From assembly GCA_046733215.1 (NCBI GenBank), contig JBKPOS010000010.1:1-59824 (forward strand): a stretch of DNA of 59,824 nt, given 5' to 3'. The stretch comes from Gemmatimonadota bacterium. Lineage in GTDB: Bacteria > Gemmatimonadota > Gemmatimonadetes > Gemmatimonadales > GWC2-71-9. The notes under the pieces were generated by a model. It searched no databases and was not told the origin of the DNA. It saw only the letters and a program-made list of their open reading frames with translations. A program made the translations under genes and the position numbers. Numbering within the stretch: position 1 is the stretch's first letter; each line of letters starts with the position of its first letter. Shown piece after piece: positions 3,190-50,767 of the stretch.

Positions 3190-6100
3190 TGCGTCGCCAC
3201 ATCGCGCGATTCGTCTTTGTCGTCGGCCTCGGGTCCATCGCCGCGGTGTTGGGTGTGGTCAGCGCTCTCCTGCTCACTCCTCCGGGTCGAGATCTCCTCG
3301 CGCGACTTGTCTCGAGCGAGCTGAGCCGCGTGTTGCTTGGCTCCGTCGAAGTCGGGTCGGTATCGGGATCGTTCCTGTACGATCTTACGATCGACAATCT
3401 CGTGATCCGTGATACCAGCGGCGTCCTACTCGCCGATCTGCCGCGGGTACGCGTGGGCTACCGCGTGCCCAATTTCTTCGCCCGTCGATTCGTGCTCGGT
3501 CGACTGCAGGTGGAGCGCCCCACGATCCAGCTGCTCAAGCACCGCGGCGGACGCATGAACTACGAGGAGGTGCTCCGGCTGGGAGGCGGAAAGGGCGGAG
3601 GCCCGTCACCCCTGATCGAATTCCGTGATGTGCAGGTGCGGGAGGGTACACTGCGGCTCATGCTGCCTTGGTCGCCCTCGCCCCAGCTCCGCACCGAGGA
3701 GCAGCGTGATTCGGCGCTGGCTGCCGAGCGGAATCGCGCCGGCAGAGTGATCGAATCCGGACCGGAGGGGCTGCGAAGAGTCATCGATGTCACGGACCTC
3801 ACCGCGAAGCTCGACCTCATGCGGATCAGCACTCCGGATCGCAAGCCGTTCACCATCGACATCGACACACTTGCGGCCCGGGTGAGCGATCCACAACTCA
3901 CCATCCGCGACGCGGCCGGCCGCGTGCGGCTGCGGGGCGACAGCGTCGTGTTCAGCCTCCGCCGAGGCGCTTTGCCGCACTCCCGGTTTGCGGGCGGAGG
4001 CGCGGTCACGTGGCCTCACGATACGACGCTCTACGATCTCCAAGTCGTTGCGTCACAGGCCAGCCTCGCCGATCTGCGCTGGATCTCGCCCAACTTTCCG
4101 GACCTCACCGGTCGCGCGGTCGTCGCGGCTCGCTCGGAAAACGGCACCCGAACTGCCTACGTCGTGACCAATCTCCATCTCGTGCGCGGCCCGACTCGCG
4201 TCGACGGACAGCTCACGGTTCTGGACGATCGGAAGCGCGGACTCGGGGTTCGCGATCTTCGTCTCACCCATACCGCGCTCGATCTGGACGAAGTTCGCCC
4301 TTTCATGCCGGACCTCCCCTTCTACGGAACGCTCACAGGCACGACGATCGCTACGGGCTTCCTGGATGCGCTGGACGCGAGGATGAACTGGGACTTCACT
4401 GACGAGGAGGTGGCGGGACATCCGGTGACCCACATCGTGGGGAACGGTCAGGTCAGTGTGCGACCCGGGCAGGGGTTGGCCTTTCAGGGACTCGAAATCA
4501 CGGAATCGGACATCGATCTCGGCACAGTGCGTCGGCTCGCCCCGGCGGTGATTCTCCAGGGTCGCCTTGCAGCCCAGGGCAGACTCGAGGGACCGCTTAG
4601 GAACGTGACCTTCAACGGGACTGCGCGCCACTACGACGGGAATTCGCCTTCCAGCGAGCTGGAAGGCATGGTCCATCTCGATACCCGCCGCGACACCTTG
4701 GCTCTTGCCACCGACATCGCGCTCCAGCCGCTCGTGTTCGATGGCATTCGTCGCTCGTTCCCCGAGCTGACGAGCACCGGGTCCATCACCGGACGGGTTC
4801 GGCTCGAGGGAACCCTGGCTCGTCTCACCGTGGACGCGTCGGTGAGCGGCGAGATCGGGACGATCGAGGCGAAGGGCGGCGCGACGGTTCAGCCGCCGCA
4901 TTGGGGAGCCCGTGATCTCGCACTGCAGTTCCAGCGACTCGACCTCGCTGCATTACGAGGCAGCGGCCCGACGACCAACCTGAACGGTTCGCTTCGGGTC
5001 ACGGGAGAGACCGATACCGCCCGCGCGCCGGAAGCGGACCTCGACGTGGTTCTGGGCCCCGGGCGGGTGCGCGATCTGCGACTCGACACACTGGTTGCCC
5101 GGGGCTCCGTGCACGACAGCCTCATCAAGGTCGACACGCTCGAGGGCCGGCTCGCCGGCGTCACCGCGCGGGGGCGGGGAACGCTCGGCTGGGCCCGTCC
5201 TCACGAAGGACGGATGTCGTTCGATCTCCAGACCGACAGCCTCGGCATTTTCGATTCGCTGCTTACCGTGTGGACTGGGTTGACCCGGGATACCTCGCGT
5301 GATGCGGTTCCCCTGACCGGTACTGCCCAGGGCTCGCTCACGCTGGGACGGAGTCTCGACTCGCTCGACGTGGCTGCCTCCTTCGTGGGCAAGAAGCTGG
5401 GGTGGAGCACGCTGCGCGCGCCGGCTGCGATTGGTGCGTTCACTTACGTGGGTGGTCACCGGCCCCGCATGACCGCGGCGTTCGGCATCGACTCGCTGGC
5501 CATGCGCCAGCGCGTGTTCCGGCGGCTCGGTCTGCAGGCGCGCGGTTTCACCGATTCACTCGAGTGGAACGGGGCAGTGGCCATCGGCAACGAGGTGGCA
5601 TCGCGGCTCACCGCCGGCGGTCGCTGGTGGCACCACAGCGACGTGCAGCGGTTCGCGGTGGACGCATTCCAGGCCCGCCTCGCGTCGCGCAGCTGGGGGC
5701 TGACCGCTCCGGTGCTGATCAGCCTGTCGGATTCGGCGCCGTCGGTCACACCACTCGATCTGGAAGCAGATGACGGATCAGGACGCCTGCTTGTCAGCGG
5801 GCGGCTCCCCGGCACTGCACCCGGGGACCTCACGCTGGATGGGTTCGGGGTCGGGCTGCGCGATCTTTACGGGCTGATGCAGCTCGACACTACCGGCGTG
5901 GACGGGGGATTGGGACTCAGGCTCGTTTTGCGCGGTACGGCGCGGGAACCGGTGATCGAAGGCGGAATCCGCCTGGAAGACGGCGTCGTGCGTGACGCCC
6001 AGATTCCGTTCGCGCACACCGTGCTGAGCTATCGAGACCGGCGCCTCACAGCGCACGCCGGTCTCATCCGGACCGGGGCGGAGTTGCTCGAGGTAAACGC

Positions 6101-7589
6101 TCAGCTGCCCATCGACCTCGGCTTTACGGGGGTCAAGCAGCGGGAGCTCGATGGCCCGATCAGCGTGAAAGCCCGGGCCGACAGCGCCGATCTGAACCTG
6201 CTCGAAGCCGTGCTCTCCGGCATTCAGGACGTGGAGGGACAGTTCGTCGCCGGAGCCGAGATCAAGGGAACGTGGGCCAAGCCGGAGATCAGCGGCTTCG
6301 TCAACGTCACCCACGGCGCCATGACTATTCCGGGCATCGGCGTGCGTTATGCGGCCATTCTGGGGAGGGGCGAGCTCCGCGGCGACTCCCTCCTGGTGCC
6401 CTACGCGCTGGTCACCAGCGGTCTGGGGACGCTGCAGATCACGGGCGGGGTGCGCTTCGACAGCCTTTCCCGGCCGCTGCTCAACCTGGACCTGGAGGCG
6501 CACCAGTTCGAGGCGCTCAAGATTCGCAACTTTCTCGACCTGACGGCGAGCGGCTTCGTCCAACTGCGTGGCCCCGTGCTCAACGCGGTAGCCACGGGTC
6601 GGGCGTCCGTAGACGAAGGCGTCTTTTATTTCGCAGACCTGATCAACAAGAACGTGATCAATCTCGAAGATCCCACCATCGCCGACCTAGTCGACACCTC
6701 GCTCGTCCGGCGAGCCAAGCTGGGCTCGCAGATTCAGAACCGGTTTCTCGACTCGCTCACCGTGAACAACCTCCAGCTCGCAATGGGGCCCGGCGTCTTT
6801 CTGAGATCCACGGAGGCCAACATACAGCTCTCGGGTCGGGTAGCGGTCAGTAAGACCAAGCGAGAGTACCGCCCGGTGGGGACGCTGGATGCGGTACGCG
6901 GAACCTATGCCCTCAAGATCGGGCCGGTGACCCGCGACTTCACGGTGGACAGTGGTTCGGTGCGCTACTTCGGTACACCGGATCTGAACGCCGAGCTCAA
7001 CATTACCGCACGGCACATCGTCCATACGGTGCGGACCAATGAGGAAATCCCGGTCATCGCACGGATCACGGGGACCTTGTTCGATCCCAAGCTTTCTCTG
7101 GAAAGCACCGTGCGGCCGCCCATCGCAGAGACGGACCTCGCCTCCTATTTGATCTTCGGTGCGCCGGCGTCGGACGCAGTGGCGGCCGGGCAGCAGACTG
7201 CGATTCAGAGTGCGTTGGCCGCCTTCTCCAGCGAGGTCGAACGGTTCCTCATCTCTGATCTGGGCGTGCCGATCGACTACGTCGAGTTCCAGCCAGGCTT
7301 GAGCACGGGCGCCGGGGTTTCAGTGAGTCGATTCGCCTTCGGGTGGCGGGTCGGGAACAAGAGCTTCGTGACGCTCAATGCGGGTTTCTGCGGAGGTGCC
7401 GCTCAATCCACTCCGTTCGGACCGGAAAATTTCGGCGCCAGCTTCGAGTATCGGTTCAGTCGCGCCTGGCGATTCCAGACCAGCTTCGAGCCCACCTTCA
7501 CCAACTGCTCGCTAGCGGGGTACAACTCGACGTTCACCAGCAGCCGCTATCAGGTCGGCGCCGACGTGTTCTGGGAAAGAGAGTTTTAG
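3189..7589 (+). CDS. tamB: Translocation and assembly module TamB (AsmA-like, DUF490 C-terminus)
   Basis: 1466 aa, N-terminal TM anchor, beta-rich repeats, C-terminal GTLFDPKLSLES...LASYLIFG; overlaps tamA stop. Confidence 0.85.
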   Translation: MRRHIARFVFVVGLGSIAAVLGVVSALLLTPPGRDLLARLVSSELSRVLLGSVEVGSVSGSFLYDLTIDNLVIRDTSGVLLADLPRVRVGYRVPNFFARRFVLGRLQVERPTIQLLKHRGGRMNYEEVLRLGGGKGGGPSPLIEFRDVQVREGTLRLMLPWSPSPQLRTEEQRDSALAAERNRAGRVIESGPEGLRRVIDVTDLTAKLDLMRISTPDRKPFTIDIDTLAARVSDPQLTIRDAAGRVRLRGDSVVFSLRRGALPHSRFAGGGAVTWPHDTTLYDLQVVASQASLADLRWISPNFPDLTGRAVVAARSENGTRTAYVVTNLHLVRGPTRVDGQLTVLDDRKRGLGVRDLRLTHTALDLDEVRPFMPDLPFYGTLTGTTIATGFLDALDARMNWDFTDEEVAGHPVTHIVGNGQVSVRPGQGLAFQGLEITESDIDLGTVRRLAPAVILQGRLAAQGRLEGPLRNVTFNGTARHYDGNSPSSELEGMVHLDTRRDTLALATDIALQPLVFDGIRRSFPELTSTGSITGRVRLEGTLARLTVDASVSGEIGTIEAKGGATVQPPHWGARDLALQFQRLDLAALRGSGPTTNLNGSLRVTGETDTARAPEADLDVVLGPGRVRDLRLDTLVARGSVHDSLIKVDTLEGRLAGVTARGRGTLGWARPHEGRMSFDLQTDSLGIFDSLLTVWTGLTRDTSRDAVPLTGTAQGSLTLGRSLDSLDVAASFVGKKLGWSTLRAPAAIGAFTYVGGHRPRMTAAFGIDSLAMRQRVFRRLGLQARGFTDSLEWNGAVAIGNEVASRLTAGGRWWHHSDVQRFAVDAFQARLASRSWGLTAPVLISLSDSAPSVTPLDLEADDGSGRLLVSGRLPGTAPGDLTLDGFGVGLRDLYGLMQLDTTGVDGGLGLRLVLRGTAREPVIEGGIRLEDGVVRDAQIPFAHTVLSYRDRRLTAHAGLIRTGAELLEVNAQLPIDLGFTGVKQRELDGPISVKARADSADLNLLEAVLSGIQDVEGQFVAGAEIKGTWAKPEISGFVNVTHGAMTIPGIGVRYAAILGRGELRGDSLLVPYALVTSGLGTLQITGGVRFDSLSRPLLNLDLEAHQFEALKIRNFLDLTASGFVQLRGPVLNAVATGRASVDEGVFYFADLINKNVINLEDPTIADLVDTSLVRRAKLGSQIQNRFLDSLTVNNLQLAMGPGVFLRSTEANIQLSGRVAVSKTKREYRPVGTLDAVRGTYALKIGPVTRDFTVDSGSVRYFGTPDLNAELNITARHIVHTVRTNEEIPVIARITGTLFDPKLSLESTVRPPIAETDLASYLIFGAPASDAVAAGQQTAIQSALAAFSSEVERFLISDLGVPIDYVEFQPGLSTGAGVSVSRFAFGWRVGNKSFVTLNAGFCGGAAQSTPFGPENFGASFEYRFSRAWRFQTSFEPTFTNCSLAGYNSTFTSSRYQVGADVFWEREF

Positions 7590-8601: not shown

Positions 8602-9948
8602 ATGGCTGATTCCGTTCTCCTGATCGACGACGATGTCGACGTCCTCCGCGGCATCGGTAACTATTTCGAGCGCTTAGGCTACGAGGTCACGCGGGAATTG
8701 AGCGGCGAGGCCGGCCTGGCCACCTTCGACCGCCTGCGACCCGATGTCGTCATACTGGACCTGCGCTTGCCGGGGATGGACGGGATGGAGGTCCTGGAGC
8801 ACCTGCGTCAGCGTGACGCTGCCGTCATTCTACTCACCGGCAACAGCGACGTGCCGACCGCGGTCAGGGCCATGCAACTGGGAGCGGAGAACTTCTTGAC
8901 CAAGCCGGTCGACATGGCGCACCTGGCGGCTGCGACTGCCCGGGTCGCCGACAAGGTGCGGCTTCGCCGGGTCAATGAGGCGCTGCTCGGCCAGACCGCC
9001 GCGGGACCGGGGCTCGATTCGCTCGGCACCTCTTCAGCGATGCAGGAGTTCGCGCATCAGGTGGCACTGCTGGCGCAGAGCGAGCGTACCACGGTGCTGC
9101 TCACCGGCGAAAGCGGCACTGGCAAGGGATGGGTCGCCCGGATGATTCACGATCGGAGCCCGAGGGCCAAGGCGCCGTTCGTGGAAGTGAACTGTGCCGG
9201 CCTGAATGCGACCTTCCTCGACTCCGAGTTGTTTGGTCACGAGAAAGGTGCATTCACCGACGCGAAGGACCGCAAGCAGGGACTCTTCGAGATTGCAGAC
9301 CATGGTACGATTTTTCTCGACGAGATTGGTGACCTGGCGCCCGAGTTGCAGCCCAAGCTTCTCAAGGTTCTCGAGACGAAAACCTTTCGTCGGCTGGGCG
9401 GCACGCGTGAGATCACCGTGGATGTCCGCCTGGTCGCCGCGACCAACCGGAATCTGCAAAGCGAAGTCGAGGGCGGCCGTTTCCGCGAGGATCTGTATTA
9501 TCGCCTCAGCGTCATGCCGCTTCAGCTCCCCGCAGTGCGGGACCGCTCTCGCGAGGATCGTCTCGCCCTGATTACCAAGTTGGGGAGTGACCTCCGGGTC
9601 GAACTCCCGGAGGCGCCGGCCACGTTTTCCAGCGAGGTAGTCGAGCGCTTGTTGGCCTATGGCTGGCCCGGCAATGTCCGTGAGATGCGCAACGTCCTCG
9701 AGCGCGCCATGATCCTCGGCCGCGGCCAACCCGCGATCAGCGTCGAGCACCTGCCCGGCGAATTCCGGGCCCGCCCGGGTGTTGGCGATCGGAGACACAC
9801 TCCGCTCAGTCTCGATGATCTCGAACGGCAGCACATCGAGCGTACCTTGAAGCATCATGGCGGCAATCGGACCAGGGCCGCGCAGGAGCTTGGAATCTCC
9901 CGTGCCACTCTCATCAACAAGATCAAGCGGTACAGCATCAGTGCTTGA
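8602..9948 (+). CDS. Sigma54-dependent response regulator (REC + AAA+ + Fis HTH; NtrC family)
   Basis: Receiver DDD/DLRLP, GESGTGK, ELFGHEKGAFTDA, FLDEIG, WPGNVRE, NRTRAAQELGISRATL. Confidence 0.95.
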   Translation: MADSVLLIDDDVDVLRGIGNYFERLGYEVTRELSGEAGLATFDRLRPDVVILDLRLPGMDGMEVLEHLRQRDAAVILLTGNSDVPTAVRAMQLGAENFLTKPVDMAHLAAATARVADKVRLRRVNEALLGQTAAGPGLDSLGTSSAMQEFAHQVALLAQSERTTVLLTGESGTGKGWVARMIHDRSPRAKAPFVEVNCAGLNATFLDSELFGHEKGAFTDAKDRKQGLFEIADHGTIFLDEIGDLAPELQPKLLKVLETKTFRRLGGTREITVDVRLVAATNRNLQSEVEGGRFREDLYYRLSVMPLQLPAVRDRSREDRLALITKLGSDLRVELPEAPATFSSEVVERLLAYGWPGNVREMRNVLERAMILGRGQPAISVEHLPGEFRARPGVGDRRHTPLSLDDLERQHIERTLKHHGGNRTRAAQELGISRATLINKIKRYSISA

Positions 9949-16107: not shown

Positions 16108-16109
16108 CG

Positions 16110-16146
16110 AAAAGCGAACGGTCCGCCGTTGTCGGCGGACCGTTCG
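16110..16146 (-). terminator. Intrinsic terminator (14-bp stem), U-tract on the minus strand; possibly bidirectional
   Basis: CGAACGGTCCGCCG-TTGT-CGGCGGACCGTTCG (16115-16146) preceded by AAAAG on +. Confidence 0.8.
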
Positions 16147-16254
16147 TCAGTGAGGTGGCAGATCGCCCCCTGAGTTTTCGGAAACGGACCTAAGTGTCCG
16201 CTCCACCCTTCTTCGACCTGCCACTTTTCCGTTGGAGCGGATCGCTCCGTCGCG
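16110..16254 (-). ncRNA. Candidate sigma54-dependent structured small RNA (~145 nt)
   Basis: Lies between a perfect -24/-12 promoter and a terminator; 5' hairpin 16234-16248, long stem 16155-16165/16214-16224, inner stem 16180-16189/16196-16204. Confidence 0.6.
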
Positions 16255-16264
16255 CTCTTGAAAA

Positions 16265-16280
16265 AGCAAGGCAGGTGCCA
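16265..16280 (-). promoter_or_regulatory. Sigma54 (-24/-12) promoter
   Basis: Minus strand TGGCACCTGCCTTGCT matches TGGCAC-N5-TTGCW exactly. Confidence 0.8.
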
Positions 16281-16297
16281 GTTGTGCGTCAGAGAGT

Positions 16298-16310
16298 TAA
16301 TAGCTTGGAA
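16298..16310 (-). promoter_or_regulatory. IHF-like site
   Basis: TTCCAAGCTATTA contains the CAA-N4-TTR core, in an AT-rich stretch just upstream of the sigma54 promoter. Confidence 0.4.
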
Positions 16311-16358
16311 AACTGTGACTTAGCTCTAAAAGCGGCATTTCCTTGGACGCCCTTTTTC

Positions 16359-16375
16359 TGTCAGCAATCTTGACA
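16359..16375. promoter_or_regulatory. Putative enhancer (UAS) palindrome TGTCA-N7-TGACA
   Basis: TGTCAGCAATCTTGACA lies ~105-120 nt upstream of the predicted sigma54 TSS, a typical bEBP site distance. Confidence 0.5.
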
Positions 16376-16416
16376 CAACCCGAACAGCAAATGGAAAGTC
16401 CCGTTACTGCATAGGC

Positions 16417-17283
16417 TTAGGCGGGCGCAAAAGTCTTTGCCGACGTTCCCGCGTTGTCAGGCGCTAGATACGGGCCTGCCGGGACCTCGGCCTCGCCACG
16501 CCAGCGCGCCAGCAAGGCTGCCCCGATCAGCACCAGCAGAATGCTGGTAAGCTGAGCCAGCGTGAAACCACCCCACAGAACTCGATCGTCTTTGGCCCGC
16601 AGTATCTCGACAAAGAAGCGCTCTATTCCGGCCAGTACGAGATAAAGGCCAAACAGCCACCCTGTCGCGCGCGCCCGGGTCCGTAATGCCCAAAGGATTG
16701 CAAAGGCCACCAGCATGATCGCCACTTCATAGAGCTGCGTGGGGTGTACCGCGAGCACCGTGCTGGGATCGGTACCCGGCGCGATCGGGATTCCGAACTG
16801 CTGTTGCAGGTTCGCGGCTGTAGACGGTGGCAACCCTTTGGGAAACCGGACGGCCCATGGGAGGGAAGTGGGCCGGCCATAATCGTCGTTTACGAGAAAA
16901 CATCCTACTCGCCCGAGCGCGTACGCGGCAGCAAGAGCCGGGGCGCCCAGCTGCATGGTCCATCGCGTTGGGACCTTGAGTCGCGCGCCGTTTGCAAGAA
17001 CCGCCAGAACTCCGCCGATAAAGCCGCCGTACCAAACGAGTCCCCCGCGAGAGAACAGGGCGCTGGGGTCGTGAAAGAGCGCGACGTACCAGAGTTTTGC
17101 TCCCACGATTCCACCCACCACTGCGGCAGCCACGAAGTCGCCGGCGTACTCCTCTCGGAGACCGCGCCGGCGCAGCTCCAGCGAGATGAGCCAGCCGCCG
17201 ACCAGGAACGCGACCATCATCATGATCCCGTACCCCGTGATCTCGAAGCGGCCAAGCTGAATGGTGAGCGGGTAGATCGTCAT
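16417..17283 (-). CDS. lgt: Prolipoprotein diacylglyceryl transferase
   Basis: GGLVWYGG, GRVGCFLVNDDYG, HPTQLYE, RFFVEILR. Confidence 0.95.
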   Translation of the reverse strand: MTIYPLTIQLGRFEITGYGIMMMVAFLVGGWLISLELRRRGLREEYAGDFVAAAVVGGIVGAKLWYVALFHDPSALFSRGGLVWYGGFIGGVLAVLANGARLKVPTRWTMQLGAPALAAAYALGRVGCFLVNDDYGRPTSLPWAVRFPKGLPPSTAANLQQQFGIPIAPGTDPSTVLAVHPTQLYEVAIMLVAFAILWALRTRARATGWLFGLYLVLAGIERFFVEILRAKDDRVLWGGFTLAQLTSILLVLIGAALLARWRGEAEVPAGPYLAPDNAGTSAKTFAPA

Positions 17284-39165: not shown

Positions 39166-39181
39166 TGCAATCCCGGTGCCA
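39166..39181 (-). promoter_or_regulatory. Sigma54 (-24/-12) promoter for the patatin gene
   Basis: Minus strand TGGCACCGGGATTGCA, an exact consensus match 36 nt upstream of the start codon. Confidence 0.75.
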
Positions 39182-50625: not shown

Positions 50626-50682
50626 GAGAAAGCCGAAAGCCGCCAACCCGGAGCCTCGGTGGAGACTTCCGTCGCTGGCGGC
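50626..50682 (-). terminator. Riboswitch expression platform (terminator competing with the aptamer 3' strand)
   Basis: GCCGCCAGC (50682-50674) pairs with GUUGGCGGC (50647-50639), followed by UUUCGGCUUUCU. Confidence 0.6.
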
Positions 50683-50767
50683 CCGGCTGGCGTGACGATC
50701 AGGTTCGATCGTGGTAGCCCCGAAGCTCTGTGCCGCCGCCTTTCGGCGGCTTTACTCTGAGCAGCAA
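50672..50767 (-). ncRNA. GEMM-I (c-di-GMP-I class) riboswitch, A20 variant
   Basis: Minus strand UUGCUGCUCAGAGUAAAGCCGCC-GAAA-GGCGGCGGCACAGAGCUUCGGGGCUAC...GCCAGCCGGGCCGCCAGCGA: P1, GAAA-capped P2 and P3 align with the Vc2-type consensus. Confidence 0.85.

Follow-up and report, generated by a model that had tools for sequence, protein, structure and literature searches.

In the window analyzed here, the whole stretch of 59,824 nucleotides from a Gemmatimonadota bacterium, the gap between a DinB_2-family gene and lgt almost certainly holds a real non-coding RNA gene, located on the minus strand. As judged by comparison with its homologues, the element belongs to a real, undescribed and clade-restricted family of small RNAs with a well-supported candidate activator. 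The same comparison provides the promoter, enhancer phasing, fold, terminator, non-coding character, clade restriction, three alternative builds and the match between the enhancer and the activator loop. The gap measures 309 bp (16108-16416) rather than the 310 bp given in an earlier sequence-only reading, and the flanking gene named dinB in that reading is a member of the DinB_2 superfamily (PF12867, Pfam), not DNA polymerase IV. The parts described by the reading are present in the places it gave: the TGTCA-N7-TGACA palindrome (16375-16359, minus-strand reading), the IHF-like site CAAGCTATTA (16307-16298, minus strand), the sigma54 box TGGCACCTGCCTTGCT (16280-16265, minus strand), a fold with a 5′ hairpin, an 11-bp stem, a purine-rich internal loop and an apical stem, and a 14-bp terminator with a U tract (stem 16146-16115, four U at 16113-16110). 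Palindrome, IHF-like site, box, fold and terminator recur in more than 200 distinct homologues, every one from Gemmatimonadota. The features are as follows.

16417..17283, minus strand: lgt (PF01790), the fixed upstream neighbor, outside the RNA gene.
16426..16442, minus strand: distal enhancer site, weak in the source genome (matrix score 5.2, 162 bp upstream of the box).
16359..16375, no strand assigned: proximal enhancer palindrome (matrix score 16 at 95 bp from the box).
16298..16307, minus strand: IHF-like site between enhancer and promoter, a putative binding site from its recurrence in homologues.
16265..16280, minus strand: sigma54 -24/-12 box, with a predicted start near 16254 (sequence; homologue promoters).
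16234..16248, minus strand: 5′ hairpin of the predicted fold, variable in sequence and missing in some homologues (L025).
16155..16224, minus strand: core module (covariation in 87 modules; covariance model R1, 99.4 bits).
16165..16173, minus strand: UCAGGGGGC, kept even in the most divergent homologues, its AGGGGG predicted unpaired.
16110..16146, minus strand: intrinsic terminator, a 14-bp stem and short U tract (fold; two-sided changes in the consensus stem).
8602..9948, plus strand: NtrC-family response regulator, candidate activator (Pfam: receiver, AAA+, Fis-type HTH).

The distal enhancer site overlaps the 3′ end of lgt. In the homologues, strong distal sites cluster 158-162 or 147-150 bp upstream of the box, and the proximal sites lie at 90-96 or 79-82 bp, two positions that differ by about one turn of the helix. 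IHF-like matches recur around 25 and 40 bp upstream of the sigma54 box, and AT-rich columns mark these positions in the anchored promoter consensus. The exact TGGCAC-N5-TTGCW box and the exact palindrome occur twice each in the 3.66-Mb genome.

The folding energy of the 152-nt stretch is -77.6 kcal/mol (z = -5.2) and none of 200 shuffles is as stable. The core module is built of the 11-bp P1 (16224-16214 with 16165-16155), an AAGAA/AGGGGG internal loop, the 4-bp P2, an A-rich bulge and an apical stem. Across 87 modules, which are related and partly pattern-selected sequences, 98.6% of the cells in the 70-nt core are paired and 14 of 24 pairs show two-sided change, while slid-partner controls on the same modules reach 32-47% paired; given this relatedness and selection, the shuffle figures are not to be taken as probabilities. 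The 26 homologues found by BLAST give the same structural picture. Two-sided changes are also found in the consensus stem of the terminator, and a hairpin followed by U is present in 188 of 237 predicted transcripts. The sole element kept throughout the homologues is UCAGGGGGC, invariant in the 26 BLAST-found homologues and in the 15 model-found modules examined; its AGGGGG has a predicted unpaired probability of 0.99-1.0. The most divergent members, in genus g108 (41 bits), keep P1 and UCAGGGGGC and have lost the opposite AAGAA strand. In their predicted structure UAUCAGGGGG is left single-stranded, with the G run in an open bulge. Because g108 keeps the helix and UCAGGGGGC while losing AAGAA, the working part would be the G run atop a helix.

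A search for homologues had been proposed by the sequence-only reading, and the promoter and stems are conserved at homologous loci, as are the enhancer spacing and the terminator, with compensatory changes in the structure. In a DNA search 27 of 101 genomes matched. Within the genus every one of the 17 other members was hit, within the family 25 of 60 genomes, and outside the family there was one match, to the terminator only. A pattern scan of GTDB contigs recovered at least 121 loci in 29 of 64 parts (approximately 270 are estimated overall), of which 120 are titled Gemmatimonadota and one uncultured bacterium, and a metagenome scan added 120 further loci. The covariance model matched 30 of 151 genomes of the phylum; the 28 strong matches (73-103 bits) all fall in family f1, and the two weak ones (about 26 bits) were rejected on inspection. 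No model match was found in 31 genomes of the sister family f2. The single match in viral contigs is a chance one, inside an AT-rich coding region. In a family-wide sample the RNA is present in 36 of 151 genomes and 19 of 78 genera, and the model scan finds one copy in the source genome (G000).

A quick TsaD+Lgt tree of 53 rows, made after eight rows of insufficient length had been set aside, unites all 24 carriers and eight genomes lacking the RNA in a single clade (SH-aLRT 99). We read the RNA as confined to one clade of one family of soil-dwelling Gemmatimonadales, with one gain and several losses. No module follows lgt in 29 RNA-negative genomes, one of whose loci ends just past lgt and one of which is mis-anchored, and a search for cis copies of the motif in five RNA-negative relatives reached at best E 0.23. 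One RNA-negative clade member (G055, L208) carries a terminator-like hairpin and heptamer repeats after lgt, possibly a deletion scar. The unpublished genomes G005, G008 and G133 were included in the alignments, model and tallies, and G156 in the 6S tally described below; no conclusion rests on any of the four.

The 237 distinct predicted transcripts fall into three builds at one locus. The first, with a single core, accounts for 183 transcripts, of which 177 have a sigma54 box. In the second, the tandem-core form, the hairpin-plus-core unit is duplicated, and the box is present in all 18 (195 of 201 outside class C). The third, class C, includes 36 transcripts with a different closing stem, and a sigma70-type box is found in 32 of these copies. 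The sigma70 form of genus g62 occupies the same position between lgt and FTR1 as the sigma54 forms; therefore, the promoter was swapped. Some genomes with the sigma70 form carry two or three RNA copies. The description of the RNA as signal-induced accordingly holds by inference for the sigma54 forms only, and does not extend to the genus with the sigma70-type promoter.

The enhancer consensus is YGTCRA-N5-TYGACR, found at 90-96 or 79-82 bp and again at 146-150 or 156-164 bp upstream of the box. With a matrix trained on these same homologue promoters, scores above 8 are reached by 93 of 94 promoters of the common single-core type. A rarer single-core type reaches them in 4 of 10 promoters, and the tandem form in 1 of 12. 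Most promoters without the TGTC..GACA enhancer carry CCGGAA/CCGGCA repeats instead. Such repeats, together with A/T runs, form a second enhancer type that replaces TGTC..GACA in g13 and g34 (L172, L175, L179, L021, L451) and was not found in G000. No other enhancer-linked promoter in G000 is comparable, and the top rank of the RNA promoter is circular, since the matrix was trained on its homologues. A sigma54-like box at 39166-39181 (minus strand) precedes a patatin-like gene (39130-38177; family guessed from sequence), with a weak enhancer match (score 6.0).

The regulator at 8602-9948 is likely to be the activator of the RNA, since the state of its sigma54-contact loop tracks the presence of the enhancer across genomes and it is one of only five candidates in one of them. 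G000 encodes 12 enhancer-binding proteins and the enhancer-bearing genome G041 encodes five, which match five of those in G000; the regulator is among them. It is present in 18 of 19 mapped loci, about 6 kb from the RNA and with no adjacent kinase gene. Enhancer-binding proteins touch sigma54 through a GAFTGA-type loop (PMC8657755). The loop of the regulator is intact, reading GAFTDA or GAYTDA, in all 25 enhancer-bearing genomes examined, and also in the carriers G264 and G265, which lie outside the enhancer-scored set. In genomes that bear the RNA and lack the enhancer it is degenerate in 12 of 13 (five of five sigma70-form genomes, four of four in g13, two of two in g34, and G215) and singly changed in the remaining one (G043). 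Within the clade, seven of eight RNA-lacking genomes have a degenerate loop, the exception being G040, and nine of ten genomes placed outside the clade have an intact one. The loop outcome for G050, G043, G046 and G022 was predicted before being tested. The genomes with degenerate loops are kin and, in the quick tree, represent some six or seven lineages rather than twenty independent events. The regulator is intact in most genomes outside the clade and in the RNA-lacking G040, and therefore it is older than the RNA and has other targets. Its DNA-binding helix is kept in all orthologues whose match reaches it. The sigma54-contact loop and Walker motifs have been lost several times beside this almost invariant helix, as if the protein had repeatedly been turned into a plain DNA-binding regulator. 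PilR was rejected as the activator, since enhancer scores at the pilA promoters do not exceed 3 and no PilR orthologue is among the five activators of G041.

The same enhancer is found at a second kind of gene. In the 1.2 Mb of G192 examined there is one other promoter with a strong enhancer (score 22.6). Behind it lie three genes of the DUF4402 type and one for a 998-aa protein that contains carboxypeptidase-regulatory-like and SdrD B-like domains. When 45 genomes were searched with the exact pattern, ten matches resulted, seven at the RNA, two before the same DUF4402 operon (G204 and G046) and one unrelated, against eight matches in the reversed control. The DUF4402 operon thus lies behind the same enhancer and sigma54 box in G192, G204 and G046 (L503:7856-13394, L539, L543); it was not found in G000. 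We take DUF4402 proteins to be fimbrial subunits, and no literature linking DUF4402 with pili was found. The regulator itself lies among tamB, yegS and NlpC/P60 genes. From the fimbria-like operon behind the enhancer in three genomes and from these neighbors, we infer that the signal concerns the cell surface. A Flp pilin promoter was dropped as a co-regulated target; it scores 8.2 in G000, but exceeds 8 in only one of the eight other genomes in which the promoter was found.

In the proposed mechanism, binding of the regulator to the TGTC..GACA enhancer would induce sigma54 transcription of an independent, trans-acting small RNA of around 145 nt, from about 16254 to 16110. The stem-framed UCAGGGGG loop would then bind and titrate a protein as a decoy, and tandem cores or additional gene copies would raise its dose. 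Taken together with the titration step, the chain as a whole has slightly less than an even chance of being correct. The conservation resides in the helix-framed loop, while the linkers and the 5′ hairpin vary. A protein site is favored over a pairing seed or a Shine-Dalgarno mimic because the helical frame is fixed, the linkers are variable and the unit is duplicated in tandem. Also in favor of the decoy, neither Hfq nor ProQ was found in G000, and 641 orthologous leaders of G000 and G192 showed no complementary site in common. Against the decoy, no partner was found among CsrA, RapZ (PF03668), Hfq (PF17209), ProQ and RRM proteins in G000, a genome that is 94.8% complete. Of 151 genomes, nine encode RRM proteins, and no RNA-bearing genome of the family-wide sample is one of these nine. 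Furthermore, the single-stranded UAUCAGGGGG of g108 would serve equally well as a pairing seed and as a protein site.

A wider version of the decoy reading is tentative and falls well short of an even chance. It describes a new class of sponge RNA, in which a structured G-loop titrates an RNA-binding regulator of an unrecognized family in a host without Hfq, CsrA, RapZ or ProQ, as an arm of a surface-attachment switch. If the sponge reading is true, its input has been rewired at least twice (another enhancer in g13 and g34, sigma70 in g62), its dose has been raised by tandem cores or copies, and the partner would be an undescribed global regulator of an abundant soil lineage.

Alternatively, the RNA may act by base pairing, which is an unlikely but serious reading. 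Its G-rich seed, UCAGGGGGC, would anneal to the C-rich strand of a leader and expose a masked ribosome-binding site, as in GlmZ, or sponge a C-rich small RNA, and a leader site of the CCCCCUGA type would be expected in common among carriers and absent in losers. Consistent with such a role, no element other than UCAGGGGGC is universal, in g108 all of it is single-stranded, and CCCCCTGA occurs 69 times in G000, 16 times outside called genes and 14 times near starts. However, the UC and the last C of UCAGGGGGC are locked in helices in most members, the G000 site before a PilS-like kinase is not conserved in G192, several of the sites in G000 look like IHF boxes, and neither Hfq nor ProQ was found in G000. 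No site for 7-9-mer seeds is shared in 641 orthologous leaders of G000 and G192, and no antisense target is common to the compared genomes, in a screen which covered 1.2 Mb (about 41%) of one second genome, where 1 of 14 candidate leaders had an orthologue.

The loop could also mimic a Shine-Dalgarno sequence, with AGGGGG binding the tail of 16S rRNA and parking 30S subunits or a ribosome-associated factor. Judged by eye, AGGGGGCGAUC pairs with the G192 16S tail GAUCACCUCCUUUCU at 10 of 11 positions, with one G-U. Yet the GAUC of this match lies inside P1, and its changes follow those of the 5′ strand instead of preserving complementarity to 16S, no start codon is kept downstream, and the G run is invariant where drift to GGAGG, the commonest leader 5-mer, would be expected. 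Such mimicry is improbable.

Whether the element is a gene of its own can be considered from its relation to lgt. At all 112 loci with sufficient flanking sequence, lgt lies upstream in the same orientation. This linkage, the lack of an evident terminator between lgt and the sigma54 promoter, and RNA-library contigs that span the promoter would suit a cis-acting part of the lgt operon's 3′ UTR, with a role in stability or termination and an incidental promoter. The conserved sigma54 box, phased enhancers and IHF-like sites speak against it, as do the replacement by a sigma70-type promoter in class C, the copies away from lgt and the 29 RNA-negative genomes in which lgt ends without the RNA, and a mainly cis role is very improbable. 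A 2.7-kb ORF intervenes between lgt and the RNA in G161, and a third copy in G140 lies at an unrelated locus, which marks the element as an apparently independent gene and not as part of a 3′ UTR. Every copy comes with a predicted promoter and terminator of its own.

Small shares of the window are present in seven RNA runs, whose contigs are unstranded, shallow and chosen for containing this stretch. Contigs of three runs extend from 16157, 16172 or 16180 to 16374, one covers 16255-16405, and another joins 16164-16262 with 16338-16401. Together they cover 16157-16405, reach about 120 nt upstream of 16254 and do not stop there. Other parts of the operon are also present in two runs, and run X6 covers lgt rather than the gap. 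At 93% likeness no contig of run X7 was placed on the element, but such an absence carries no weight. The contigs spanning the promoter fit read-through from lgt, or DNA. The gap is present in RNA libraries, and the start at 16254 is a prediction. The contigs of three rhizosphere runs end exactly at 16374, on the border of the enhancer palindrome, and leave no loose end; this common end may come from one sampling campaign.

The sequence-only reading had offered as its own alternative a 25-aa ORF, which exists but is not conserved among the homologues. A short reading frame whose three rare arginine codons (CGA AGA AGG) serve to produce a peptide or to stall ribosomes is barely credible and was rejected. 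In its favor, the stem opens with GTG (194 of 202 first modules), and the host seldom uses AGA and AGG (1.95 and 3.7 per 1000). Against it, the ORF varies from 14 to more than 100 codons, the invariant 3′ element is found in each of the three frames, class C modules have GTC in place of the start codon (35 of 35), the start is buried in the 11-bp stem, and the codon run is broken in G264, which reads GGA, and in g108, which loses the arginine codons. By this comparison the core encodes no conserved peptide.

The Rfam scan proposed by the sequence-only reading gave no family match (best E 0.22, to the terminator only), and in seven other loci, including six variant homologues, no module matched better than E 0.53. 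No description of this RNA was found in the literature searched, chiefly titles and abstracts; the claim that it is not a described family stands on both searches. Likenesses to the T-box, RNase P, lambda boxB and Y RNA, noted by eye and followed by the Rfam scan, were dropped, as the pairing partners differ. Identity with SRP RNA, RNase P RNA or tmRNA is ruled out by the presence of all three elsewhere in G000. 6S RNA was not found in G000, and its Rfam model matches none of 72 family members, RNA-bearing or not. Replacement of 6S was rejected; its absence is common to RNA-negative relatives and hence there was no swap. Two genes that flank 6S in other classes abut in G000 (C170, approximately 4325-6255). 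Among other RNA elements of the genome, a c-di-GMP-I riboswitch lies at 50674-50766 on the minus strand (53.9 bits, above the Rfam gathering score), and a sigma54-like box is located around 45 nt before a c-di-GMP-I-GGC riboswitch match at L245:5545-5680 (G000:C9; 54.5 bits, below the gathering score of 59).

Gemmatimonadota are common in soil, and the literature searched yielded no small RNA described from them. As the RNA is near-invariant and the usual partners were not found, its partner or target should represent new post-transcriptional control. The family also offers natural experiments: around eight losers within the clade, two promoter rewirings and tandem expansions. With these, the partner could be sought through gene co-loss and the activator tested with one binding assay.

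Several known RNAs share parts of this design. Like 6S RNA (RF00013), the element has a long helix with an internal bubble. It differs in its 70-nt core, 5x6 loop, clade restriction and possible tandem arrangement; the length of about 185 nt, the zapA-linked locus and the model match of 6S RNA are lacking. CrcZ and CsrB/RsmY are signal-driven RNAs in which many short single-stranded motifs titrate Hfq or CsrA. The predicted signal-driven transcription and the repeated putative binding units are similar here, but they consist of one or two large structured modules with no repeated GGA or ARN motifs, and CsrA and Hfq were not found. CrcZ is listed as an RpoN/CbrB target in a table of PMC8657755.

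Pxr of Myxococcus (PMC5684412, PMC11928866) is a sigma54 small RNA of one clade, with three stem-loops, a linked NtrC-like regulator gene and a conserved, essential SL1. The present element is likewise a clade-restricted, predicted sigma54 small RNA with three stem-loops, linked to an NtrC-like regulator gene. Unlike Pxr, it has no Rfam match, its conservation lies in the middle stem while the 5′ hairpin varies or is missing, and its regulator lies 6 kb away with no adjacent kinase gene.

A parallel in regulatory design exists with GlmY/GlmZ of Enterobacteriaceae. PMC3045617 and PMC4152352 describe for them a sigma54 promoter, a TGTC-N10-GACA enhancer, an NtrC-type regulator and IHF sites, the loss of sigma54 control to sigma70 in some lineages, and GlmY as a protein decoy acting via a stem-loop. 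The present family differs from them in having no sequence or Rfam model match at E up to 10, an enhancer spacing of N9 rather than N10, no RapZ or Hfq found in G000 and one copy there, so that no decoy/effector pair exists. It shares the sigma54 promoter, the TGTC..GACA enhancer, a candidate activator of NtrC type, the IHF-like sites, the sigma54-to-sigma70 switch and, in the proposed mechanism, decoy action through a stem-loop. Since this parallel comes without shared sequence, it suggests that the same regulatory design arose twice.
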